A stretch of 64,000 nt of DNA from the IMG/VR virus record IMGVR_UViG_3300001199_000005, positions 32,001-96,000 of that record, one strand, 5' to 3'. Under the pieces are notes generated by a model. That model was not told the origin of the DNA, made no database searches, and worked only from the letters and a program-made list of their open reading frames with translations. The translations under genes were made by a program, and so were the position numbers. Shown in pieces: positions 20,326 through 42,126 of this stretch (positions are counted from its first letter, which is position 1; each line of letters starts with the position of its first letter). The DNA comes from a virus.

Positions 20326-20582
20326 GTTTTAAAGTTATAGTTAATTGTATCTCTTCCTACAATAGAATATCCTGTACTAATAATAGTATCAGCTTTATAC
20401 TCTAACCATAATGACAGGCTATGCCCTTTATCATGGAAATGAACTGAATTCTCATACTCCACATAAAACAAATCAGGTGCTGGTACTTTATAGACCAACA
20501 CCTGATTAGAAAATTCAACCTGTAATTGACAGCCATAACTTGGGCATATTACAGCCCAAGCTATAAGCAGTTCCTGTATCAT
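20313..20582 (-). CDS. Hypothetical protein
   Basis: 89-aa ORF coupled to neighbours. Confidence 0.5.
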   Translation of the reverse strand: MIQELLIAWAVICPSYGCQLQVEFSNQVLVYKVPAPDLFYVEYENSVHFHDKGHSLSLWLEYKADTIISTGYSIVGRDTINYNFKTCYK

Positions 20583-22381
20583 ATATTGAATTTTTCTACA
20601 ACAACTTTTACTTCGTCGTAGGCATTATTTCTATATGAAATATCTAACGCTGTATAAGGATTAAGAATATCCCAATCTTTTACATTCATAACTAGTTTGG
20701 TAATGTTCTCCACTTGACCAGGAACAAAAATAAGTCCAGGAACTTCTTTGAAATCTCTTACATCCCTGTTTTGTCCAACATCCATCAAGACAACAAGTTC
20801 TGGTCTGTAGCCAACTTCTACCTCCATAATCTTCATGGCTGCGTCAAATGAACGAACCACGTCACGCTCATTATTAAAGTTACCATCACTGATTAATAAC
20901 CAGATTGGATATGAACTAAGTAGTTCTCTAATACTATCCCTTTCAGCAAGACTGGCTGTTTTCATTATACCGTGTATAGCTTCGCCAATAGAAGCTAAAT
21001 TAGTACCATTCCCAGTTTGAATAGCTGATAAGAAACCACTTAACTGCTTATAGTTCTCCAACAAAGACTTTCTTTTATCTACCAACGGCTGTTTTGCTGC
21101 TTGCACAGCTTCACCAAATCTAGTAGCTTTCTTGTCAACGTAGGAAATATATCTAGCCTTATCAGAAAATGTCCAGAATCCTGAATCAGTTTCGGTCTTT
21201 AGCAGAACAATGGTAAGTAAAAACTTAGCAACATCAATAGGCTTAATGGAGCCACTAGAACCACCATACATAGAGCCACTATCATCAACAAACACCATTA
21301 CTTTATCAGTACCTAGCTTAACAGTCTTCAAATACTCTTCAGCAGCAAGAGCGTCCACAGTTTCAGTTCTTAAAGCTTCTAGTATTGTTTTTGTATTATA
21401 TACACCACGACTAACTTTAGCTTCTTTCTCTAATTGCTTTAAGTTGATTTGGTCGGTCAAAGATAACTCTTTGCCTTCGTTATCAGCTTTAAAATCTCGT
21501 AGTGTTTGATTGCTTTTCTCTTTCGATTCTTGCCATTCTTTGAAAATGTCAATCATAGGAGTATCTACAATCTTCCATAATTCAGGCTGTTTAACTATTC
21601 TATTATAGACTCGTTTTCTAGCACCACCAGTAAGGTGGTCAAGCCAAGTCAAGAAGTCTTGTTTAGTAAACTTAAGTATTTCCTTAGTAGAAAACATTAC
21701 TGACTCTAACTGCTTGTTATGTTCTTTCTTAAACTCTTCGGCACCGATATACCTAGTATTCTTAGGATAATATTTAATATCCCAATTCATTACTGAACTA
21801 AGCTCAATAGCGAACTTATGTTTTAGTCTTTGAGCGGTGACAGAGGCCTTTGACCTAGCTACTTTGATAGTCTTATCTTTTAACTTCCTCTTAGGCTTTG
21901 AATGAGGAAGTACTAACTGTTTAGCAGCTATTACTCTTCTCATAGGATTGCCCTTAACCCAAGCAGCGAATATTTTTGCCTGTGTAGCTAAATCATAGAT
22001 ATTGTTTCTATCTGTGGTTACATAGTATAGCTCTGATAATGAGGTGAACTCAATCAATACACGTACTATTGCTTCCAAGAATTCAGGTTTGTCTATAAAT
22101 TTAACAAATATCCAGTTAAATATTACTTGTCCTGACTTTCTATTAGCGTAACCACCAATAGTTCTTTGACTTTTCGCATAAATCCAATGCTGTCTATTTG
22201 TAATTGCAATACATTCTGCTAGTAATACAAAGAACAATTGTTTGTGCTCTTTAGTAGTACATTCATGCCAAGCATTAGTAATATCTGATTCTGAAATCAA
22301 ATCTTTACCTATTGCGTTTGATAATACCAGTAGTGCTGGTTTGTTATCAAAAGGGGTCTTTTTTTGAGTTAGTGTTACCAT
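20579..22381 (-). CDS. TROVE/Ro60-like (DUF2828-type) protein with C-terminal vWA domain
   Basis: 600 aa; basic helical N-terminus with RTIGGYANR; MIDAS VDDSGSM, TFS, GNGTN, LISDGNF; lies downstream of Y-RNA-like genes. Confidence 0.7.
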   Translation of the reverse strand: MVTLTQKKTPFDNKPALLVLSNAIGKDLISESDITNAWHECTTKEHKQLFFVLLAECIAITNRQHWIYAKSQRTIGGYANRKSGQVIFNWIFVKFIDKPEFLEAIVRVLIEFTSLSELYYVTTDRNNIYDLATQAKIFAAWVKGNPMRRVIAAKQLVLPHSKPKRKLKDKTIKVARSKASVTAQRLKHKFAIELSSVMNWDIKYYPKNTRYIGAEEFKKEHNKQLESVMFSTKEILKFTKQDFLTWLDHLTGGARKRVYNRIVKQPELWKIVDTPMIDIFKEWQESKEKSNQTLRDFKADNEGKELSLTDQINLKQLEKEAKVSRGVYNTKTILEALRTETVDALAAEEYLKTVKLGTDKVMVFVDDSGSMYGGSSGSIKPIDVAKFLLTIVLLKTETDSGFWTFSDKARYISYVDKKATRFGEAVQAAKQPLVDKRKSLLENYKQLSGFLSAIQTGNGTNLASIGEAIHGIMKTASLAERDSIRELLSSYPIWLLISDGNFNNERDVVRSFDAAMKIMEVEVGYRPELVVLMDVGQNRDVRDFKEVPGLIFVPGQVENITKLVMNVKDWDILNPYTALDISYRNNAYDEVKVVVEKFNI

Positions 22382-22968: not shown

Positions 22969-23061
22969 GACATACTATAAGGCGGATTCGAACCGCTTTC
23001 TTCTGATTTCAAGTCGGACGCTATACCAAAATAGCAGCTGTTAATGAGTTGTGAGTATGTC
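22969..23061 (-). ncRNA. Array unit H: closing stem + CACAAC + D arm, Ser(UGA)-type anticodon arm and T arm; no acceptor stem
   Basis: GACATACT/AGTATGTC; TCCGA-CTTGAAA-TCAGA; GCGG-TTCGAAT-CCGC. Confidence 0.75.
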
Positions 23062-23070
23062 AAAGGCTGA

Positions 23071-23125
23071 AGCTTACTATTATTTTAAACGGACTGTTAT
23101 TTTTTTGTATAGTTGTAAGTAAGCT
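23071..23125 (-). ncRNA. Array unit G: minimal unit with no clear tRNA part
   Basis: AGCTTACT/AGTAAGCT + TACAAC; A-rich insert with weak AAC-AGTCC-GTT hairpin. Confidence 0.65.
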
Positions 23126-23156
23126 GAGTATCTATAATTTTTTTTAGTCTAGGAAA

Positions 23157-23222
23157 AGAATTCTATATTGGTCAATTTAAAAGGTTGATGCTCTACCGAG
23201 CGGGTAAAGTTGTAAGAATTCT
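23157..23222 (-). ncRNA. Array unit F: D-like hairpin + Lys(UUU) anticodon arm
   Basis: AGAATTCT/AGAATTCT + TACAAC; GCTC-GGTA-GAGC; TCAAC-CTTTTAA-ATTGA. Confidence 0.75.
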
Positions 23223-23231
23223 AAAGAAGTA

Positions 23232-23293
23232 AGCATACCATATTGGTCAATTTAGCAGATTGGTGCCCGAAGGCTCTAAGTTGTAGGTATGCT
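23232..23293 (-). ncRNA. Array unit E: UUCG hairpin + Ser(GCU) anticodon arm
   Basis: AGCATACC/GGTATGCT + TACAAC; GCC-TTCG-GGC; CAAT-CTGCTAA-ATTG. Confidence 0.75.
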
Positions 23294-23324
23294 GAATATC
23301 TATTATTTGAAATAGTCTAAGTAA

Positions 23325-23380
23325 GACATGCTTTTTGTTTGGCAACATTATCAGTGTTTATTTTTAGTTGTAAGCATATC
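23325..23380 (-). ncRNA. Array unit D: isolated Ile(GAU) anticodon arm
   Basis: GATATGCT/AGCATGTC (one U-G pair) + TACAAC; AACA-CTGATAA-TGTT. Confidence 0.75.
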
Positions 23381-23394
23381 GAAAGTCTTGAATA

Positions 23395-23461
23395 AGAACA
23401 CTATAGTTGTCAAAAACCAAAATTTGATGCCCGAATAGGCGTTTTTAGTTGTGAGTGTTCT
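23395..23461 (-). ncRNA. Array unit C: small hairpin + probable Gln(UUG) anticodon arm
   Basis: AGAACACT/AGTGTTCT + CACAAC; GCC-TATTCG-GGC; TCAAA-TTTTGGTT-TTTGA (8-nt loop, register ambiguous). Confidence 0.7.
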
Positions 23462-23473
23462 GAATGTCTGAAA

Positions 23474-23569
23474 GAAGTACTATAATTTAAACACCCAAGG
23501 ATTTCTCCTGCAGAGTATTATTGGAATCGAACCAATTTTAACCATTTTGTTAATGATTGTAAGTACTTC
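23474..23569 (-). ncRNA. Array unit B: T arm followed by a capped acceptor-like stem
   Basis: GAAGTACT/AGTACTTC + TACAAT; ATTGG-TTCGATT-CCAAT; ATACTC...GGGTGT enclosing AGGA-GAAA-TCCT. Confidence 0.7.
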
Positions 23570-23583
23570 AATATGTCTTGAAA

Positions 23584-23697
23584 AGAATACTATTATCCTG
23601 CTTTCGCAGTCTATACAGGAGTTGAACCCGTTACTGATTGATTATAAGTCAATTGCTCTACCAGATGAGCTAATAATTAATGAGTTGTAAGTATTCT
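23584..23697 (-). ncRNA. Array unit A: D arm, Ile(UAU) anticodon arm, T arm and GAAA hairpin; no acceptor stem
   Basis: AGAATACT/AGTATTCT + TACAAC; GCTC-ATCTGGTA-GAGC; ATTGA-CTTATAA-TCAAT; ACGGG-TTCAACT-CCTGT; CTGC-GAAA-GCAG. Confidence 0.78.
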
Positions 23698-23703
23698 GTT
23701 TTG

Positions 23704-23802
23704 TGCGGAAAACTGGGGTCGAACCAGTAGAACATATTTCGCTTTAGTTTGTCGAGGTCTAAAGCCTTTGAAATACTGCTTTGCCAATTTGCATATTTCC
23801 AC
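23704..23802 (-). ncRNA. tRNA-like RNA (Leu-like body) with greatly extended anticodon arm
   Basis: Acceptor GTGGAAA/TTTCCGC + A; D arm TGC-AAATTGGCAAA-GCA; T arm ACTGG-TTCGACC-CCAGT; anticodon arm GTATTTC/GAAATAT + GCTTTAG/CTAAAGC. Confidence 0.7.
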
Positions 23803-23808
23803 ATTTTT

Positions 23809-23852
23809 AAAAAGACCTGCCGTGTTTCAATATCCTTCGACACGGCAGGTTT
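23809..23852 (-). terminator. Intrinsic terminator after the YrlA-like RNA
   Basis: ACCTGCCGTGT/ACACGGCAGGT 11-bp stem + CTTTTT. Confidence 0.75.
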
Positions 23853-23854
23853 GT

Positions 23855-24000
23855 GCAGCGCATCTTTTAGAAAGTTTAATGCTGATGTATCCAAACGTTC
23901 TACCATTTAAACTACTCACCCTTGTTGTTATTGTTTTTGAGGGCAAGAGGGGGCTCGAACCCCTAATTTTTTGGAGGTCTGACTTTCTATATGCAACTGC
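23855..24000 (-). ncRNA. Circularly permuted tRNA-like RNA on a long bulged stem (YrlA-type Y RNA architecture)
   Basis: Order: long stem 5' strand, T arm AGGGG-TTCGAGC-CCCCT, loop-closed acceptor CTTGCCC/GGGTGAG, D arm GTTT-AAATGGTA-GAAC, long stem 3' strand. Confidence 0.8.
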
Positions 24001-30972: not shown

Positions 30973-31069
30973 TGTCTTTCCTGTTTAAGGTTTTTAATTC
31001 TGAAGTTCTATTTAGTAATAAAAAAAAATAGTGAATACAAATACAAAAACTATGGTTCGATACCAAGGG

Positions 31070-31152
31070 TCCCGTTGAAGGGACTCGAACCCTCACGACT
31101 TTCGTCAAGGGTTTTTAAGACTCTCATGTGCTACCAATTTCATCACAACGAG
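31070..31152 (-). tRNA. tRNA-Leu(UAA)
   Basis: CTCGTTG/CAACGGG acceptor, loop CTTAAAA, long variable arm, GAGGG-TTCGAGT-CCCTT. Confidence 0.9.
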
Positions 31153-31158
31153 ATATTG

Positions 31159-31242
31159 TACCTTTAGAGAGATTCCAACTCTCAATTCCTCTCGGAAAAC
31201 GGGGTCTAAATCCGTTGCGTTTTGCAGTTTCGCCATAAAGGT
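31159..31242 (-). tRNA. tRNA-Leu(UAG)
   Basis: ACCTTTA/TAAAGGT acceptor, loop TTTAGAC, long variable arm, T loop TTGGAAT. Confidence 0.85.
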
Positions 31243-31245
31243 GTG

Positions 31246-31323
31246 TAGTGTCTTTGAGATTTAAACTCAATTTTATTTAGTAACTAAGAAATCAATAGTC
31301 AGTATAGTAAAGGTTGAACTTAC
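31246..31323 (-). pseudogene. Two tRNA 3'-half remnants (T arm + acceptor strand)
   Basis: GTAAG-TTCAACC-TTTAC and TTGAG-TTTAAAT-CTCAA without D or anticodon arms, next to the HNH gene. Confidence 0.4.
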
Positions 31324-31334
31324 ATGCTATATTT

Positions 31335-31985
31335 TTAAAATTTTGATTTTATCCATTTCCTAATAGCATTGTCTGATACTCCATATTTTCTGCCAGTTCC
31401 ACAATATCCTAAATGTGATACATCATCCAATAATATTTCTAAAGCAGGTCTAATTGTTTTTCTACTAGATATTAAATAACTTTTTCTTAGTTCGGTGAGT
31501 TCTTTTGTAGTTTTCTTTTTAGCTTTTTCTTTTCTATTATTTTCCCTATCTTTTTTTGTTTTCAGCGAATGACAGTTTGGACAAAGTATTTGTAAATTTT
31601 TAAGGGAATTATCTAAATGGTTAGAATTTATATGGTCTAATTCTAATGGTATTTTTTCACTACACCATGTACTTAGTCCACAAAGTTCACATTCATCTTT
31701 TTTATAACCCTCGTTAATTAATCTTTTTCTTAACCCGCTACTAGCAATACCCCTTTTTCCAGATAAATAATCATCAATTGGGTATTTAAGTCCTTTAGGT
31801 TTTGAATTAAATGGTTTGCTACCAGTAAAATGTGTGTTGTCTATATTAAAAAACATACTTACTTTTTTAATATGTGATTGTGAACCGCCTCTTGTAGATA
31901 GATTTAATTTTCTACACACCTCAGACCAGTTATAACTACTTTTTACGATTAATTCGAGTTCTTCTTTTTTGTATTTAGTTTTCAT
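31335..31985 (-). CDS. HNH homing endonuclease inside the tRNA cluster
   Basis: CELCG...LELDHINSNHLDNSLKNLQILCPNCH. Confidence 0.88.
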   Translation of the reverse strand: MKTKYKKEELELIVKSSYNWSEVCRKLNLSTRGGSQSHIKKVSMFFNIDNTHFTGSKPFNSKPKGLKYPIDDYLSGKRGIASSGLRKRLINEGYKKDECELCGLSTWCSEKIPLELDHINSNHLDNSLKNLQILCPNCHSLKTKKDRENNRKEKAKKKTTKELTELRKSYLISSRKTIRPALEILLDDVSHLGYCGTGRKYGVSDNAIRKWIKSKF

Positions 31986-31997
31986 TGTAATTTTTAG

Positions 31998-32069
31998 TAG
32001 CGTATGAGAATTTCGAAATCTCGTCCTCCTGGCCCCAAACCAGGTAATCTTCCTCTGATATAATACGCT
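31998..32069 (-). tRNA. tRNA-Pro(UGG)
   Basis: AGCGTAT/ATACGCT; CCTGG-TTTGGGG-CCAGG; T loop TTCGAAA. Confidence 0.85.
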
Positions 32070-32079
32070 ATATCTTGTG

Positions 32080-32151
32080 TGTGCCTAATCAGGGATGAAC
32101 TGACAACTACCTGTTCCACAAACAGGGGCTTTACATTAAGCTATAGACACC
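32080..32151 (-). tRNA. tRNA-His(GUG)
   Basis: G-1 + GTGTCTA/TAGGCAC; CCTGT-TTGTGGA-ACAGG. Confidence 0.85.
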
Positions 32152-32169
32152 ATATAACAAAAACTATTG

Positions 32170-32242
32170 CGTTCAAGGTGGGTATCGAGCCCACTATCCT
32201 TAGTTTAACAAACTACCGCTGTACCATACTAGCTTCTCGAAC
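32170..32242 (-). tRNA. tRNA-Asn(GUU)
   Basis: GTTCGAG/CTTGAAC + G73; loop TTGTTAA. Confidence 0.85.
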
Positions 32243-32250
32243 AGGCATAT

Positions 32251-32287
32251 AAACAAACAGCCCAACCTAGTTAAAGATTGGGCTGTT
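32251..32287 (-). terminator. Attenuator terminator upstream of the Asn/His/Pro/Leu tRNAs
   Basis: AACAGCCCAATCT/AGGTTGGGCTGTT stem + TGTTT. Confidence 0.75.
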
Positions 32288-32312
32288 ATGAATTACTAAT
32301 ACAATTGCAATA

Positions 32313-32378
32313 TCATCCCACCCAATCTGATTGGTTATTAAGATGTTGCGGTTGTAAGAGAGAATTTATAAATTGCAT
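32313..32378 (-). CDS. Putative attenuator leader peptide MQFINSLLQPQHLNNQSDWVG
   Basis: 21-codon ORF rich in Gln/Asn/Leu with Pro and His; its 3' end is complementary to the terminator 5' arm. Confidence 0.72.
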   Translation of the reverse strand: MQFINSLLQPQHLNNQSDWVG

Positions 32379-32393: not shown

Positions 32394-33086
32394 TTATTTG
32401 GTTGCAGGGGTTGGATTTGAACCAACGTATCCTTTTGGGATAGCCAGCTTATGAGACTGGTGAACTAGGCCTCTATTCGACCCTGCTATATTTACAGATA
32501 TTAATTTATTATCGTATTCCCAGTGATGATTAGGACAAAGAGCTATCAAATTATCAATATGATTAATAACACTTATTAAGGTATCATTTGAAAACTCAGA
32601 TACTGCTTTTATATGAGCAATCTCAACGTGCTTATCGTATCCACAGATGTTACATTTCTTTTCTTTTAAAGATTCTTCAAAATTTAAACAAGCATCTTTT
32701 CTTATCATAGTTCTAGCTGTTTGCCAATTTTTAGAATTTTCAAATTGAAATCCCTTTGTTCTATCCCCTACAACTCTTTTTATCTTTTTGCATTTTTTAT
32801 TGCAAAACAAACTTGCGGTTGACTCAAAAACTGTACTACAATTTTTACATTGCTTTGGTTTCGATTTCCTTTTTGGACTGTTTTTATTATTAAGTTTAGC
32901 GGCGCAAGAACGAGAACAAAATTTATTAATTCTATTTTTGTAATCTATTTTCTTATTACATAACTCACATCTTTTTGGATTATTGTTGTATTTTGTTTCA
33001 TTCTCTATAAGTTTGTGCTTATTTTGACATGATACATCACAGAATTTATTTTTAACTTCCTTCTTACAACAAAGACATTTATTCAC
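32394..33086 (-). CDS. HNH homing endonuclease with Cys-rich repeats; ORF runs through the tRNA(CAU)
   Basis: CNICG...EIAHI...NLIALCPNHH. Confidence 0.85.
   Translation of the reverse strand: MNKCLCCKKEVKNKFCDVSCQNKHKLIENETKYNNNPKRCELCNKKIDYKNRINKFCSRSCAAKLNNKNSPKRKSKPKQCKNCSTVFESTASLFCNKKCKKIKRVVGDRTKGFQFENSKNWQTARTMIRKDACLNFEESLKEKKCNICGYDKHVEIAHIKAVSEFSNDTLISVINHIDNLIALCPNHHWEYDNKLISVNIAGSNRGLVHQSHKLAIPKGYVGSNPTPATK
32399..32487 (-). tRNA. tRNA with CAU anticodon (Met/fMet or Ile2), unusual long variable arm
   Basis: A1:A72 mismatch, CCAGT-CTCATAA-GCTGG, variable stem TATCC-CAAAA-GGATA, encoded CCA. Confidence 0.8.
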
Positions 33087-33421: not shown

Positions 33422-33509
33422 TGGCGGAGAAAGTAGCATTCGAAACTAATTCCTTTCAGAACACATTGTTTAGCAAACGAGTTTAAGCAACCTGCCTAAT
33501 TCATTCTCC
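33422..33509 (-). tRNA. tRNA-Ser(GCU)
   Basis: GGAGAA/TTCTCC + GCCA; loop TTGCTAA; long variable arm; weak anticodon stem. Confidence 0.75.
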
Positions 33510-33513
33510 TTAT

Positions 33514-33551
33514 AAAACAAAAACACCTTCCTATTTACATAAGAAGGTGTT
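33514..33551 (-). terminator. Attenuator terminator upstream of the Ser/Ser/Tyr/Trp tRNAs
   Basis: AACACCTTCTTAT-GTAA-ATAGGAAGGTGTT + TTTGTTTT. Confidence 0.8.
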
Positions 33552-33572
33552 AGATTTTGTTTATACAATATT

Positions 33573-33632
33573 CTAGCAACCTTCTCGAAGAAAGTACCAC
33601 GAACTAGAATAAGTATAAGTAGTTGTTTTCAT
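33573..33632 (-). CDS. Putative attenuator leader peptide MKTTTYTYSSSWYFLREGC
   Basis: 19-codon ORF with a run of Thr/Tyr/Ser/Trp codons; its AGAAGGT is complementary to terminator ACCTTCT. Confidence 0.75.
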   Translation of the reverse strand: MKTTTYTYSSSWYFLREGC

Positions 33633-33650
33633 TTTAGCTTAATTTATTTG

Positions 33651-33682
33651 CAAATATAATTTGCTTAAGCTATACTTCCAAA
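33651..33682 (-). promoter_or_regulatory. Bacteroidota consensus promoter for the leader/tRNA operon
   Basis: TTTG-N20-TATATTTG, 18 bp upstream of the leader ATG. Confidence 0.75.
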
Positions 33683-37507: not shown

Positions 37508-38088
37508 GTCCGAAATTAGTGGTTATGTTTTATAAAAAGCTTTACGAAATTCCACAATAGGGTCTAAATTGTTATCTATTGCGTACCAGATGACTTCAAT
37601 CGTATCATCTATATCTATGCCTTTAATCTCTGCTATTGAGATTAGTAGCAATGCTACTAAAGTATTCATAATTTAGTTGTCTAGTTTTACTATGATTTAA
37701 ATTGTGATATTAAAAACAGTCTTTGTATTAGTAAATGAAATAGCCGCAGTGCATAACACCACGGTTATCTGATTAACCAATTAACATATCTTTAACCCTA
37801 ATGGGTAATTAGTTCAAAACAAAATCCGCCACCGCTAACCAAGCATAAGCTGGTTCAATCGAGCGATGACGGATTGTTTCTCGGCAGCAGCATGGTACAT
37901 GCATCATGGGCTCTAAGGCCATAGGTGTAAACTGCGTGCGGAGGTTTTTGGGCCCTTGTACTTCGGGACCTTTTTTACTGGCTTGTATTACTAATGCGAC
38001 GCCAGATTTTTTCATTCAATGCGCATAGACCAGATTCACCGAGGCTCAACAAAGTTAAGTCACGGCATAAGGTTCTGATTTACCTTCG

Positions 38089-38161
38089 TGCAACATACAG
38101 GGTTCGAACCTGTGACCCTCTCATTAAGAGTGAGATACTCTACCAACTGAGCTAATGTTGC
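38089..38161 (-). tRNA. tRNA-Lys(CUU)
   Basis: Canonical cloverleaf; TCTCA-CTCTTAA-TGAGA. Confidence 0.92.
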
Positions 38162-38266
38162 TTGAGGGCGTTACCCTCGTTTCTTTTTGTTTGTCAGCCG
38201 TATACTCTAATTACTTACCCATTTATGTAAAAACAATGTAAGTATACAATCATCATCAGGTATTTT

Positions 38267-38341
38267 GCCGCAGCTAAGGGAATCGAACCCATAGTAACCA
38301 ACCCAAGACTCTTAGACTTTCGTAGCATCTTGTAGCTGCGG
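38267..38341 (-). ncRNA. tRNA-like RNA or pseudo-tRNA
   Basis: 9-bp CCGCAGCTA/TAGCTGCGG stem and GGG-TTCGATT-CCC T arm; no canonical D or anticodon arm. Confidence 0.5.
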
Positions 38342-38391
38342 GTTTGTTTGTGTACTTTAAAATGTTAGGCTGCCACTTCACTAGCTCCGAC

Positions 38392-38739
38392 TTACCCAGT
38401 CCCAGAGCTACAAAGATTATCATATCTTACAGGGTATACATACTTTTTCCCCGGCACTTCAACATAACTATGAAAGCCATCTGTGTCTTTTATAAAACAC
38501 ACTACTTTGGACTTGTTATGTTTCTGTGGGAATAGTCGTGATTCTGTATCGAATTCGATAAATAGCTCGTCTTGAAGTACGAGTTCAAAATCGTTTTCAA
38601 ATTCCTCTACAGGGTAATTTTTTCCCGTATTGGCTACTACGCAACTATCGTTTTTACTAACGATAACTCCTACAATGAGGAGATTTGTTCTGTGTTGCCC
38701 GTCAACATGGACAAGCTGCTTTTCTTTTGTCTTTATCAT
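38392..38739 (-). CDS. Hypothetical protein
   Basis: 115 aa. Confidence 0.55.
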   Translation of the reverse strand: MIKTKEKQLVHVDGQHRTNLLIVGVIVSKNDSCVVANTGKNYPVEEFENDFELVLQDELFIEFDTESRLFPQKHNKSKVVCFIKDTDGFHSYVEVPGKKYVYPVRYDNLCSSGTG

Positions 38740-38761
38740 TTTTTTTTAGTTTGGTTAAATT

Positions 38762-38797
38762 AAAAAAGCTGGCATGGTTGTACAGTCCACGCCAGCC
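38762..38797 (-). terminator. Intrinsic terminator
   Basis: GCTGGCGTGG/CCATGCCAGC + T6. Confidence 0.65.
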
Positions 38798-39323
38798 ACA
38801 TTCTGCCTTATAATGGTGACTAGTCCACTCAATGGGACTACATTACAACTACCCCCTGCTTTTGGATAAATGGGTCTAACCAACCCTGGCATTTGTTGTG
38901 GGTATATTTCAACCCGGTTTTTGGGCTTTCGCCCGTTCTAAAATAAAAAACAAGGAAGTACCCGAAGGTAGAAGCTCTTCCTTGTTTATGAGGTCCTTAT
39001 GCGTTGACCTATTAAGGTCAACCGCTCGACCAGGAATGTGCTGCCCTGCACTAGCGTAGAACAAAAGGAGTACCGTAAAGGTAAGAGAATCTCCTTTGTT
39101 TAAAGTCAGGCTGGCCCGTAATATTTTATTACAGCATCGGCGGCCTGTGGTTTTTGTGCTCTCCTACACACGATGGGGACAGTAGCGAGTGCCAAATAAT
39201 GTGGCTCCGCTTTTTTGAGTTTTTCCCCGTGCTTTCCAGCATGCTCGGCTTAGGCTTTATTTATACTCATGCCACCGACTATATGGGTTTATGAGTTATC
39301 CTGGGGTTTTACTCCAGGATATT

Positions 39324-39554
39324 TTAGGTAAAGATTACAAGTGGTTCATCTTGTTCCAGAATTACAACATTGATATACCCGTTATCACCAGATAGGTTCA
39401 TGTTATATTCCGACAAAGTTGCACCATACGCTTCAATTTCATTTGTTGCATGTGACCACCATGCTTGTTGTGAAACCCAGGAACAAGCTTCCTGAAAATT
39501 GTTGTGGTTAAACACTACTGTTGCATGTAACCACCCTGAAAATACTAGTATCAT
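39324..39554 (-). CDS. Hypothetical protein
   Basis: 76 aa. Confidence 0.5.
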   Translation of the reverse strand: MILVFSGWLHATVVFNHNNFQEACSWVSQQAWWSHATNEIEAYGATLSEYNMNLSGDNGYINVVILEQDEPLVIFT

Positions 39555-39674
39555 ATATAATGGTTAATGTTAGTACTATTATGTAGAGATTAAACTACAA
39601 TACTGTAAAATTTCTAGTTTTTACATTCATGCAACTGTGTTTTTCACACCCAGCATTATATTGTAGTTTTAAAG

Positions 39675-39860
39675 TTAAACTTTTGGTCGTTGTTTGCGCA
39701 CGGGCTGTACGTTGTGGAAGCCTTTTTGTAAGATTCCATTGCCCTCTTTGTTCCAAATGTGGCTGCCATCTGGTCGTGTCTTGTGCGCCAAGCCCATTGC
39801 GTTCAAAATGTCCATGTTTGGCTTTTGAGTGCGCCTGCTTCTTCTTTGTGATGCTTTCAT
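39675..39860 (-). CDS. Small basic hypothetical protein
   Basis: 61 aa after an A-rich leader. Confidence 0.5.
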   Translation of the reverse strand: MKASQRRSRRTQKPNMDILNAMGLAHKTRPDGSHIWNKEGNGILQKGFHNVQPVRKQRPKV

Positions 39861-40001
39861 TGTTGTTTTCAGTTGATTTTGAGTTGATTTTTATTTATTC
39901 TTCAAGACTGTAGCGAATATTTGATGTGTTGGTATGAAAATTTTTAGCTTTTTACCACTTTCACTTGTTTTATTGTGATACCCTTGTGGCAAGGGAAGAA
40001 C

Positions 40002-40292
40002 TTAGCGCTTGGTTACTTCATAAGTGAAGATGCCAGTGGCAAATTCACGTGTTTGGTCGCAAGACAACTCTTTACCACGCATCTCTGCGGGAATATCAAG
40101 CTGGACCTCGGTTACACTGGCGCAATGACAGGCCAAGTGCATTGGCAATACGCCTAGCACATGCTTATTGTCAAGTACAGTCGCGTCTACAACGTGTTGC
40201 AATACAATTCCCCAAGTGTATCCTTCTTGCGAAAGATATTCGAGGAGTCCACTATGGCGTGACACTACTATATCTACAAATTTTGTTTCCAT
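40002..40292 (-). CDS. Csx16/VVA1548-like small Rossmann-fold protein
   Basis: VVSRHSGLLEYL...HV...VLGVLPMHLA...RGKELS; start taken at METKF. Confidence 0.6.
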   Translation of the reverse strand: METKFVDIVVSRHSGLLEYLSQEGYTWGIVLQHVVDATVLDNKHVLGVLPMHLACHCASVTEVQLDIPAEMRGKELSCDQTREFATGIFTYEVTKR

Positions 40293-40797
40293 CACATTCT
40301 GGCATTTTAATGGGTTAGCCTTCCCGTTTAGTTTTAGTGCTCTTTCTATTAAGCCCAGCATCAGGGCACCACAGTCATCAGAAACTATTTATTTTTACGT
40401 GCTGTGGACACGACATACTTAGTATGCGAAAAATAAGCCCCATTGTACACTTGCCTTATTACAGGCTGGGCTTTTTATTTATCCTCGTCGTGCATACGAG
40501 GTTTTCCATCCGCTCAGTATAGAGGTTCTTCGACCTCATCTACTAACTCAATATAGCCTAATCGAAGGCCTTTATCGAGTTCAGCAAGACTCTTTTGAGT
40601 CCAAGCCTCTGGACGAGACTGAACATCAGCAGGAGTCTGCTGGTCGCGGATTGCCCTATAGACCCACTCTACTGAGTGGTCTTCTGGGCGTCGTAATCCT
40701 TTCGCCATATAGATTAATGTTAGGAAGCCGGTTGTCCAGTTATCAGATATTGCGATTGCAATAGCAAGATTCGAACTCACATCTCTCCCTAACATTG

Positions 40798-40871
40798 TCT
40801 TCCCTACAAGATTCGAACTTGTAACCTACTGCTTAGAAAGCAGACGCTCTATCCAGTTGAGCTAAGGGAAG
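40798..40871 (-). tRNA. tRNA-Arg(UCU)
   Basis: CTTCCCT/AGGGAAG; loop TTTCTAA; T loop TTCGAAT. Confidence 0.9.
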
Positions 40872-40966
40872 ATGTTGGTGCTCCGTTTGAAGACTTTACA
40901 CATTTGCAAGGTGTGCTACCTCTTTTCTCTCTTAGTCAGACTAAGAGAGTAGGGCAAAGTTATGCC

Positions 40967-41551
40967 CTATTTGCTGACCGAGTCTAACCTGACTCGGTGC
41001 ATAATCCTACTGACTGGGTAGGTCAGCAATGTCGCAGGATTGAATCCTGCAGCATACATCTCTAACCAGTCTTTGGTTGTCAACTCACGTCCTTGAACGT
41101 GAACATGGCAACCGTGTAGGACTATGTTCCAGTGCGGAGCGTACTGGTCCACTAGCTCCTGATAGGAGCCTGTAGCAATACGCTTCCGCCCTTCGACAGC
41201 GAACCAGACCAGCAGCTTGGGAGCTTCCAAGTCCAACTTTTGTTGGAGTTCTTGGCGTTGCTCTGCAGCCAGAACCAATTGCTGAGTGCGAGTCAGCTTT
41301 TGGTCCTGTTTGCTGGTCTGGTTCAATCCCAGACTAATAAGCATATATATTTGTTTTATGTGGACTATCTCAATCACCACATCGTATTCCCCATGATTAC
41401 GGATTTTGCCGTATGGGAACTTATCTGTCGTCCAGACAGGAATGCTTTTATGTCGCTTAGGATTATTAACGACAACCCCTAACACAGTATGCAGATTCAA
41501 TATGAGTGCTGCATAAACTAAGCTGTGCTTTTTACTACCATGTAGGGACAC
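40967..41551 (-). CDS. Hypothetical protein (true start probably MLISLG near 41344)
   Basis: Long ORF in the early region. Confidence 0.5.
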   Translation of the reverse strand: MSLHGSKKHSLVYAALILNLHTVLGVVVNNPKRHKSIPVWTTDKFPYGKIRNHGEYDVVIEIVHIKQIYMLISLGLNQTSKQDQKLTRTQQLVLAAEQRQELQQKLDLEAPKLLVWFAVEGRKRIATGSYQELVDQYAPHWNIVLHGCHVHVQGRELTTKDWLEMYAAGFNPATLLTYPVSRIMHRVRLDSVSK

Positions 41552-41877
41552 CTTTCGGCGTTTGTTTTTAGTGGGTTTCCCCTCCTTTCACGGCTTTAAC
41601 GTGCAACCTTCTTTCAACCTGCTATTTCAAGGTGTCTGTCATTAGTTGGCGCATCCACTCTTTTGAAGTGAATGGGTAGTACCTTTTAACTAGAGGTTAC
41701 TAGGAGAGATTGGAGATACTCCAAGAACGATTTGCTCCTTTCTCAAGGGAGCTGTGGAACCCCGAAGGGTCTACTATTTAAGCATAGTTGCTTCCCGTCA
41801 TTCAGGATATGATACATGCACCTTTGCAGTGCAGTGTTCACGTAAGGATATGACTTCCTGATACGTGATTATTTCGA

Positions 41878-42126
41878 TTAGCACCCAGCCCGCTCCCTTT
41901 GAGCGTTTAATTGCTCAAGGGTGATGGTGTGCGGTACCTTTCCGCAATTGTACTTGTAGTACATTATTGCGAATTTTTTAATGTTGGATAACGTCCTGTC
42001 AGGGACGATTCCAACGAAAATAGATACATACTTTTTCAAGTATGTATCGTGCCCCAATTGTATTGGGGCTTTTTCAAGTTTTAGAGCGTTCAACAACGCT
42101 CTAAAAATAACTATGTTCTGTTCCAT
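41878..42126 (-). CDS. Hypothetical protein
   Basis: 82 aa. Confidence 0.5.
   Translation of the reverse strand: MEQNIVIFRALLNALKLEKAPIQLGHDTYLKKYVSIFVGIVPDRTLSNIKKFAIMYYKYNCGKVPHTITLEQLNAQRERAGC

Follow-up and report, generated by a model that had tools for sequence, protein, structure and literature searches.

A candidate leader-peptide attenuator ahead of a phage tRNA gene block

A 64,000-nucleotide (nt) stretch of phage DNA (the window; bases 32001-96000 of the 152,878-bp IMG/VR record IMGVR_UViG_3300001199_000005, estimated completeness 85%) carries on its minus strand a unit, E2, in which a leader open reading frame (ORF; 32378-32313) and an intrinsic terminator precede the transfer RNA (tRNA) genes Asn-His-Pro-(HNH)-Leu-Leu, the parentheses marking an HNH homing-endonuclease gene. 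We conclude that E2 is probably a working leader-peptide, or ribosome-mediated, transcription attenuator that gates this tRNA block. The case is supported in part, by the specificity of its antiterminator, by ribosome-position logic and by a switch core that recurs with codon-matched leaders in other phages. A sister unit, E1, lies upstream of E2, and T2 and T1 denote the terminators of E2 and E1, respectively. All positions are those of the window unless another record is named, and the features are collected in Table 1.

Results

Architecture of the E2 switch

The sequence elements of E2, the mutually exclusive pairings among them, the statistics of those pairings and the recurrence of the arrangement in other phages were observed directly. 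A preliminary description of this DNA, drawn from the letters alone, had pointed to the leader ORF with its run of Leu, Gln, Pro, His and Asn codons, to a terminator at 32251-32287, and to tRNA-Asn, His, Pro(UGG), an HNH gene, Leu(UAG) and Leu(UAA) in that order. Translation bears out the ORF and its core codons, folding yields a 13-bp hairpin with a U-rich tail that runs to 32247, and ARAGORN and Rfam identify the tRNAs, tRNA-Asn being called by Rfam and by ARAGORN at a relaxed threshold. Two further proposals of that description, that a stretch of the leader is complementary to one terminator arm and that the preceding CCAAT offers it an alternative partner in a 1:2 hairpin, were upheld by the pairing and folding described below.

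The stem core of T2 is CCCAATC/GGTTGGG, and the hairpin is among the strongest terminator-like hairpins of the genome. A TTTGTTT motif at 32257-32251, whose first two bases lie inside the stem, is invariant across six aligned units, and tRNA-Asn starts 4 nt past the U-rich tail and 8 nt past this motif. Segment 2 (AGATTGGGT), which occupies leader codons 17-20, can pair either backwards with segment 1 (CCAAT) in a small anti-antiterminator hairpin or with the terminator 5' arm, GCCCAATCT, through eight Watson-Crick pairs and one G-U pair. Segment 1 also forms the apex of a longer leader hairpin, and the pairing energies for 1:2, 2:3 and 3:4 are -14.9, -13.8 and -20.3 kcal/mol, an order that we take to resemble that of the Escherichia coli trp leader. 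The complete E2 spacer (156-158 nt) between tRNA(CAU) and tRNA-Asn folds as a long imperfect leader hairpin plus the terminator, with z = -4.4.

When the 111 nt upstream of the terminator were shuffled 2000 times with dinucleotide composition preserved, the energy of the antiterminator duplex was reached by 0.45% of shuffles (T2 taken alone). The same comparison across ten strong minus-strand terminators of the same arm gave 0.012 for T2 and 0.008 for T1, against 0.18-0.90 for the eight controls. The switch pairing of E2 is thus more than chance, and antiterminator complementarity is specific to the two tRNA-proximal terminators.

Dependence of folding on ribosome position

The nascent transcript, up to the terminator loop, was folded under a 28-nt mask representing a ribosome at successive leader codons. 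With the A site anywhere from codon 2 to codon 13 of E2, the antiterminator is about 75% formed; the value is 0.59 for codon 14, 0.28 for codon 15 and no more than 0.23 between codon 16 and the stop codon. For E1, it is open for codons 2-12 and closed from codon 14, which is the end of the Tyr/Ser/Trp run of that leader. In both units, therefore, a modelled ribosome that finishes the leader blocks the antiterminator, whereas one stalled in the control run does not.

The two units share a layout in which the terminator stem is copied by a small hairpin (3-nt loop) whose 3' strand, segment 2, falls at the end of the ORF, one or two codons ahead of the stop codon. The candidate control codons stand directly 5' of the small hairpin. 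The preliminary description was right in calling E2 unrelated in sequence to the first attenuator and identical to it in logic, as terminator comparison and alignment both indicate. The E2 start codon lies in A-rich sequence free of a Shine-Dalgarno motif, as do the starts of the record's other genes, only 6% of which carry such a motif; this A-rich, Shine-Dalgarno-poor start context is a pattern known from Bacteroidota.

Leader codons of E1 and E2

The candidate control run of E2 comprises codons 7-16 (Leu Leu Gln Pro Gln His Leu Asn Asn Gln), of which seven of ten are cognate to downstream tRNAs, the remaining three being Gln codons that lack a phage tRNA. Over the whole leader, the five downstream tRNAs read eight of 20 codons, or six of 20 under strict wobble. 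Among the enriched residues, Leu, Pro, His and Asn have downstream tRNAs; Gln does not. The match in E1 is much better than that in E2, with Tyr, Ser or Trp in seven of eight consecutive codons, a density reached by one of 622 small ORFs (those of this genome that begin with ATG and span 15-30 codons, in any frame), and with its tRNA set ranking tenth of 1140.

Recurrence of the switch in other phages

A public 735-kb phage record, LR756501.1, contains 66 tRNAs by Rfam, arranged in blocks sorted by amino acid. These form four super-clusters, each behind a single hairpin with a TTTTGTTTT tail, and upstream of every hairpin stand a promoter-like box and a leader ORF. The leader residues correspond to the tRNAs that follow: MNFRIINMIQEQMQQIQNLIGGTISY (E/M/Q/I) stands before Glu, Met, Gln and Ile tRNAs, MNNILHINLLNSLCLLGIKLIG (L) before five Leu tRNAs, MLQTSKHSKHFSSSSKWF... 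(W/H/F/K/S) before Trp, His, Phe, Lys and Ser tRNAs, and ...FTPAPAVAFRRGTGTGTGTCVPAG... (R/P/A/T/V/G) before Arg, Pro, Ala, Thr, Val and Gly tRNAs. When these four leaders and those of E1 and E2 were scored against the six tRNA sets, two of the 720 possible pairings reached the true one, and the E2 tRNA set was the best of the six for its own leader.

Aligned on the tail, E2 shares GATTGGGTG (segment 2), the CCCAATC...TTGGG stem and TTTGTTT with the Leu and the Glu/Met/Gln/Ile units of LR756501.1, its segment 2 aligning with GATTGGGTG of the Leu unit. In the arm-pairing test, unit L008 of LR756501.1 fell at 0.2% of shuffles; automatic arm definitions were poor for the other three units.

We then defined a core pattern (GATTGG, 28-58 nt, CCCAATC, 6-12 nt, TTGGGNTNTTTGTTT) that is silent on ORFs and tRNAs, and it matched 23 loci, 5 viral and 18 metagenomic. 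Every one of the 23 carries an ATG ORF of 19-47 codons whose end lies 2-29 nt past the start of segment 2 (E2: 15 nt), and the tRNAs agree with the leader residues in all cases with sufficient downstream sequence. One leader, MKNIQNIQPQPIQRPQKGWIG..., precedes Pro, Pro, Gln, Gln, Ile and Arg tRNAs, and another, MENLRNINNNNININNDDLYIMLYDWV, precedes Met, Tyr, Leu, Ile, Arg, Asp and Asn tRNAs. Leader families are conserved from one contig to another, their substitutions sparing the control residues, and the first tRNA lies 8-40 nt past the tail in most related units. In a matrix of 14 leaders and their tRNA sets, in which several units are closely related to one another and background frequencies are those of this phage, none of 200,000 random pairings reached the true pairing. 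E2 scored -log10 P = 1.39 in this matrix (rank 3 of 14), at the weak end and similar to three other members. By architecture and switch core, E2 most likely belongs to this family of phage tRNA attenuators.

Promoter-like boxes in these loci lie 25-60 nt before the ATG and read GAAAAAANTGACATTTTTT...TAATATATA or TTTG...TAnnTTTG. The form GAAAAAANTGACATTTTTT-N(5-8)-TAATATATA, 25-40 nt before the leader ATG, is found in most of the huge-phage units (L005-L010 of LR756501.1 and loci L012-L034); the TTTG...TAnnTTTG box is found in a minority of the huge-phage tRNA attenuator units and in E1.

Upstream context of E2

The leader ATG of E2 lies 20 nt past the CCA end of tRNA(CAU) and 15 nt past the stop of an HNH ORF (33086-32394) that overlaps this tRNA. 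The Bacteroidota-type promoter motif occurs within the tRNA region only before E1, and a sigma-70 promoter scan was uninformative in this AT-rich DNA. Since the tRNAs begin 4 nt past the U-rich tail without a promoter of their own, they depend on read-through; and since E2 has no promoter, transcription must enter it from the E1 promoter or the HNH gene, so that it forms the second of two serial gates. The layout of E2, with a tRNA 20 nt upstream and no promoter, is found in no LR756501.1 unit, and a tRNA precedes the leader in none of the 23 pattern loci.

The tRNA(CAU) gene itself has a type II shape with an A1-A72 mismatch, A73 and an encoded CCA. It supplies the last 31 codons of the HNH ORF, whose HNH_2 domain ends (residue 199) exactly where the tRNA starts. 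Candidate identities are Met, Ile2 or a Ser/Leu-like mis-decoder. LR756501.1 also has a tRNA(CAU) of about 90 nt, at 171564-171653 of that record.

A missing tRNA-Gln and a tRNA fragment beside the HNH gene

The complete record holds no tRNA-Gln by ARAGORN, relaxed ARAGORN or RF00005 at E up to 1. Three related units whose leaders contain Gln and Pro (L016, L018 and L034) have their tRNA-Gln genes after the tRNA-Pro genes, the place taken in E2 by the HNH gene, 11 nt past tRNA-Pro. It is therefore reasonable to infer that E2 has lost a tRNA-Gln gene, and loss at the HNH site is plausible. The preliminary description had predicted such a loss from the Gln codons and had proposed remnants at 31246-31323, beside the HNH insertion, as its traces, to be sought by aligning related tRNA clusters. 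The prediction itself stands as plausible, and the comparison did place tRNA-Gln after tRNA-Pro in related units. The stretch at 31246-31323 is indeed a tRNA fragment, but its assignment to tRNA-Gln is not supported, and what lies there resembles tRNA-Trp.

The spacer past this second HNH gene has no Rfam tRNA match at E up to 10. It was considered as a tRNA-Gln remnant and rejected, its likeness to 17 phage tRNA-Gln sequences being at shuffle level. Within it, 31329-31303 agrees with the D/anticodon arm of this phage's own tRNA-Trp at 25 of 29 positions, a match reached in none of 2000 shuffles. The fragment lies just downstream of the second HNH gene and has two 1-nt deletions, one of them within the anticodon. 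This arrangement suggests that an HNH-associated rearrangement destroyed or copied part of a tRNA, and E2 probably lost both its own promoter and its tRNA-Gln gene through such rearrangements.

Discussion

Proposed mechanism

We infer that the leader is translated, that transcription terminates at the hairpin and that the outcome responds to tRNA supply. The 21-codon leader would be carried on transcripts arriving from upstream. During undelayed reading, the ribosome would reach the last codons or the stop and mask segment 2 (32328-32320), so that the 13-bp terminator could form and RNA polymerase would halt in the U-rich tail before tRNA-Asn (start 32242). A ribosome stalled at the Leu, Gln, Pro or His codons among codons 7-14, with Asn predicted to be less effective, would leave segment 2 free to pair with the terminator 5' arm; with this antiterminator formed, polymerase would continue into the tRNA genes. 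The phage would thereby make the E2 tRNAs when those codons are decoded slowly, and E2 would be the later of two serial gates, downstream of E1.

Evidence weighing against attenuation, and alternative explanations

Several observations weigh against this interpretation. The codon match emphasized in the preliminary description, and for which a permutation test had been suggested, is weak by itself: among the 622 small ORFs, 17% (lenient wobble) or 21.5% (strict) match the tRNA set equally well, the best 10-codon window (seven matches) is equalled by 27 (4%), and the E2 tRNA set ranks 291 (gene background) or 652 (small-ORF background) among 4845 four-residue sets. Taken alone, this match is marginal (p ~0.04-0.15) and not beyond chance. 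The commonest leader codon is Gln CAA, in four copies, and the record holds no tRNA-Gln. The adjacent Asn codons 14-15 are where a stalled ribosome already masks part of segment 2. Searches ahead of E2, and in the gap that separates the terminator from tRNA-Asn, showed neither a TAnnTTTG nor a phage-type promoter box, in contrast to all 23 pattern loci and the four LR756501.1 units, which have their own promoter-like box. The pattern was moreover written from E2 and LR756501.1, so the shared core is so by construction and the independent findings are the ORFs and tRNAs only. Bacteroides phage DAC20 has no leader before its Gln-Met-Leu tRNAs, and the design is therefore not universal. Finally, the collections searched hold no close relative of this phage. 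The attenuator reading nevertheless holds, carried by the antiterminator, the ribosome logic and the recurrence and not by the codon match on which the preliminary description had laid stress.

The same observations can be turned into other explanations. T2 might be a plain intrinsic terminator that ends the HNH and tRNA(CAU) unit, or a partial insulator, with the ORF and its codon content arising by chance. It does resemble other terminators of this genome (for example 20507-20471), an ORF of at least 12 codons occurs in about 55% of random 115-nt stretches, and the insignificance of the codon match alone, the unmatched Gln codons and the missing promoter fit such a view. We consider it unlikely, as the 5' arm has an upstream partner in T1 and T2 and in none of the eight controls, the tRNAs 4 nt past the tail rely on read-through, and the same core occurs with codon-matched leaders in 27 other units. 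Alternatively, E2 could be a relic, descended from the attenuator family and now a constitutive partial terminator after HNH-associated rearrangements removed its promoter and tRNA-Gln. E2 alone lacks a promoter and starts 20 nt past a tRNA, no tRNA exists for its commonest leader codon, a tRNA fragment sits beside the HNH gene and two HNH genes interrupt the cluster. Loss of regulation nonetheless seems quite unlikely to us, given that the ORF, segment 2, 13-bp stem and tail are all intact, five cognate tRNAs remain downstream and transcripts from the E1 promoter can reach E2.

Two further explanations dispense with the leader altogether. The spacer begins at a tRNA 3' end, ends in a terminator and is strongly structured (two hairpins, z = -4.4), as might befit a stable small RNA or 3'-trailer-derived RNA of tRNA(CAU), a tRNA-processing product of about 150 nt whose function would have nothing to do with the ORF; small stable RNAs are also encoded in the T4 tRNA cluster. 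This is improbable, for the spacer matches no Rfam family at threshold, and such an RNA would leave the 2:3 complementarity, the position of the stop codon and the family-wide agreement of leaders and tRNAs unexplained. Most improbable of all is a ribosome-independent switch in which a protein or an RNA, such as uncharged tRNA, stabilizes one structure over the other. In its favour, the significance of the alternative pairing does not depend on the ORF, and a GGGTGG after segment 2 is vaguely T-box-like, yet no T-box, PyrR or other cis-regulatory family matches at threshold, a T-box leader would not fit into the 156-nt spacer, the ORF ends just past segment 2 in every family member and leader residues track the tRNAs.

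Relation to known regulatory systems

As a leader-peptide attenuator, E2 would join trpL, hisL, leuL, thrL, pheL, ilvL and the predicted Bacteroid-trp leader, with which it shares a short leader ORF and an intrinsic terminator, as well as a segment at the end of the leader that pairs backwards or with the terminator 5' arm according to the position of the ribosome; codons 7-16 are its candidate control run. Its control would be multivalent, with several amino acids represented, as in the ilv and thr leaders. Unlike these systems, E2 would gate tRNA genes rather than biosynthetic enzymes, so that slow decoding would be answered by making the decoder itself, and it is phage-encoded and lies inside an operon without its own promoter. 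Its 158-nt spacer matches no curated leader family (His_leader, Trp_leader, Leu_leader, Thr_leader, Bacteroid-trp and others) at E up to 10. E2 appears to share the mode of action of the curated leaders while standing outside their families.

Coupling of tRNA status to a choice between terminator and antiterminator also recalls T-box riboswitches, which stand before aminoacyl-tRNA synthetase and amino-acid genes. T-boxes, however, act without translation, their leaders of 200-300 nt contacting uncharged tRNA directly by means of a specifier loop and a conserved T-box sequence; neither the Stem I specifier loop nor the T-box sequence was found in the 156-nt spacer of E2, which gave no match to RF00230. 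The nearest likeness is to the units of LR756501.1 and the IMG contigs, with which E2 shares GATTGG(GTG), a 28-58-nt spacer, the CCCAATC stem, the TTTGTTT tail and a leader that stops shortly past the start of segment 2. Each unit of the LR756501.1 type has its own promoter and a leader that its tRNAs match completely; E2, by contrast, stands directly behind a tRNA, has no promoter and is missing the tRNA for its commonest codon, in a phage whose genome is about five times smaller than those of huge phages of that type.

The tRNA regions of phages T4 and T5 likewise intersperse tRNA clusters with homing endonuclease genes, small ORFs, promoters and terminators, a likeness to the E2 region; we know of no codon-matched leader with an antiterminator in either. 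In the full-text literature, whose coverage leaves out most subscription journals and older T4/T5 work, we found no description of tRNA genes controlled by leader-peptide attenuation; as far as that literature shows, tRNA genes are a new target for this mechanism in any organism.

Implications for phage tRNA genes

The presence of tRNA genes in phages is usually attributed to codon-usage compensation or to the replacement of host tRNAs that are degraded or cleaved in infection. If the attenuator interpretation is true, the phage senses how fast particular codons are decoded and produces the corresponding tRNAs only when they are needed. The core signature can be used to find such units in metagenomes, the leader offers a reading of which tRNAs a cluster once contained, and E2 would extend the design from huge phages to a 153-kb phage. 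E2 may also serve as a case of homing-endonuclease erosion, with its lost promoter, missing tRNA-Gln and leftover tRNA fragment.

A broader scenario is conceivable, although we regard it as rather doubtful when taken as a whole. The attenuators would constitute an inducible tRNA response to the loss of particular host tRNAs, for instance through anticodon nucleases or host shut-off, with E2 as a second checkpoint behind E1. Leader codons without a tRNA, such as Gln, would be fossils of lost tRNA genes, so that leaders record the ancestral set, and the GATTGG/CCCAATC core, found in phages of 150-735 kb, would be a mobile regulatory cassette that spreads with tRNA blocks.

Further features of the window

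The record has a G+C content of 33% and includes rIIA and portal genes, and the minus strand carries all genes from about 43,300 down to 1. Along this strand, the tRNA region begins with the E1 promoter, a 19-codon ORF, T1, a doubtful long-arm tRNA, tRNA-Ser(UGA), Tyr, Trp and an HNH gene, and continues with tRNA(CAU), the E2 spacer, tRNA-Asn, His, Pro, the second HNH gene, a 92-nt spacer, Leu(UAG) and Leu(UAA). No usable relative of the phage was found: blastn against GenBank phages matched only HNH and tRNA pieces, exact patterns of tRNA-Asn and of the terminator gave no matches, and a neighbouring protein of 131 residues had no relative in viral contigs or among 5.8 billion proteins. A PRTase neighbour has only a relative of 29% identity, and the portal protein a single one, at 33%.

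Table 1. Features of E2, its surroundings and the sister unit E1 (window coordinates)
Feature	Position	Strand	Description	Basis
HNH ORF overlapping tRNA(CAU)	33086-32394	-	HNH_2 domain at residues 145-199	ORF list
tRNA(CAU)	32399..32487	-	89 nt, long variable arm; upstream boundary of E2	ARAGORN; Rfam 42.4 bits
E2 leader ORF	32313..32378	-	21 codons + TGA; product MQFINSLLQPQHLNNQSDWVG	Translation, ORF list
Candidate control codons	32331..32360	-	Codons 7-16	Translation
Segment 1	32330..32334	-	CCAAT; 5' side of small anti-antiterminator hairpin	
Segment 2	32320..32328	-	Pairs with segment 1 or terminator 5' arm	
Intrinsic terminator hairpin (T2)	32256..32287	-	13 bp, 6-nt loop, -20.3 kcal/mol	Folding
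U-rich tail	32247..32255	-	TGTTTATAT	Sequence
tRNA-Asn(GUU)	32170..32242	-	First gated gene (candidate)	Rfam 41.3 bits; ARAGORN only at relaxed threshold (-ps90), missed by default ARAGORN
tRNA-His(GUG)	32079..32150	-		ARAGORN + Rfam
tRNA-Pro(UGG)	31997..32069	-		ARAGORN + Rfam
HNH homing-endonuclease gene	31335..31985	-	11 nt past tRNA-Pro	ORF list + domain searches
tRNA-Trp-like fragment	31303..31329	-		25/29 aligned positions vs D/anticodon arm of phage tRNA-Trp
tRNA-Leu(UAG)	31158..31242	-		ARAGORN + Rfam
tRNA-Leu(UAA)	31067..31153	-	Last of gated block (candidate)	ARAGORN + Rfam
Sister unit E1	33522..33682	-	Ahead of tRNA Ser, Ser, Tyr, Trp	Promoter, leader, terminator
E1 promoter	33682-33651	-	Bacteroidota-type, TTTG-N20-TATATTTG	Motif search
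E1 leader	33632-33573	-	19 codons, MKTTTYTYSSSWYFLREGC	Translation
E1 terminator (T1)	33551-33522	-		Folding

Directly past T1, a degenerate long-arm tRNA-like gene (33426-33510, minus strand) has an anticodon loop that reads by eye TTGCTAA (GCU, Ser). ARAGORN calls it only at the lowest threshold, as Thr(CGU), and Rfam makes no call; it may be a decaying or very divergent tRNA-Ser.

Elsewhere on the minus strand, the ORF-free stretch 22970-23990 contains tRNA-like elements at 23675-23612 (47 bits, anticodon loop UAU, incomplete acceptor stem) and 23038-22973 (28.7 bits). It also includes a weak match to a Y-RNA-like RNA (YrlA; 23988-23866) and a CTTACAACT-type motif repeated about eight times, and it is flanked by terminators at 23849-23816 and 22959-22933. 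The gene next to this Y-RNA-like region (20579-22381) encodes 600 residues and matches PHROG 850, 'RNA-binding protein'; the ORF has no Pfam family, and a Ro/TROVE domain was not confirmed by Pfam.

The stretch 38000-42000 has a G+C content of 40-45%, compared with 32-35% elsewhere, around a lone tRNA-Lys(CUU) and tRNA-Arg(UCU), and may be of foreign origin. Both tRNAs look canonical (66-71 bits), and a leader and terminator unit sought upstream of them was not found. Upstream of tRNA-Lys lies a tRNA-like element (38268-38343, minus strand) with a perfect 7-bp acceptor-like stem, GCAGCTA/TAGCTGC, and a GGGTTCGATTCCC T-arm; it lacks normal D and anticodon arms, scores 13.4 bits against RF00005 and has a short match to a tmRNA 3' end.

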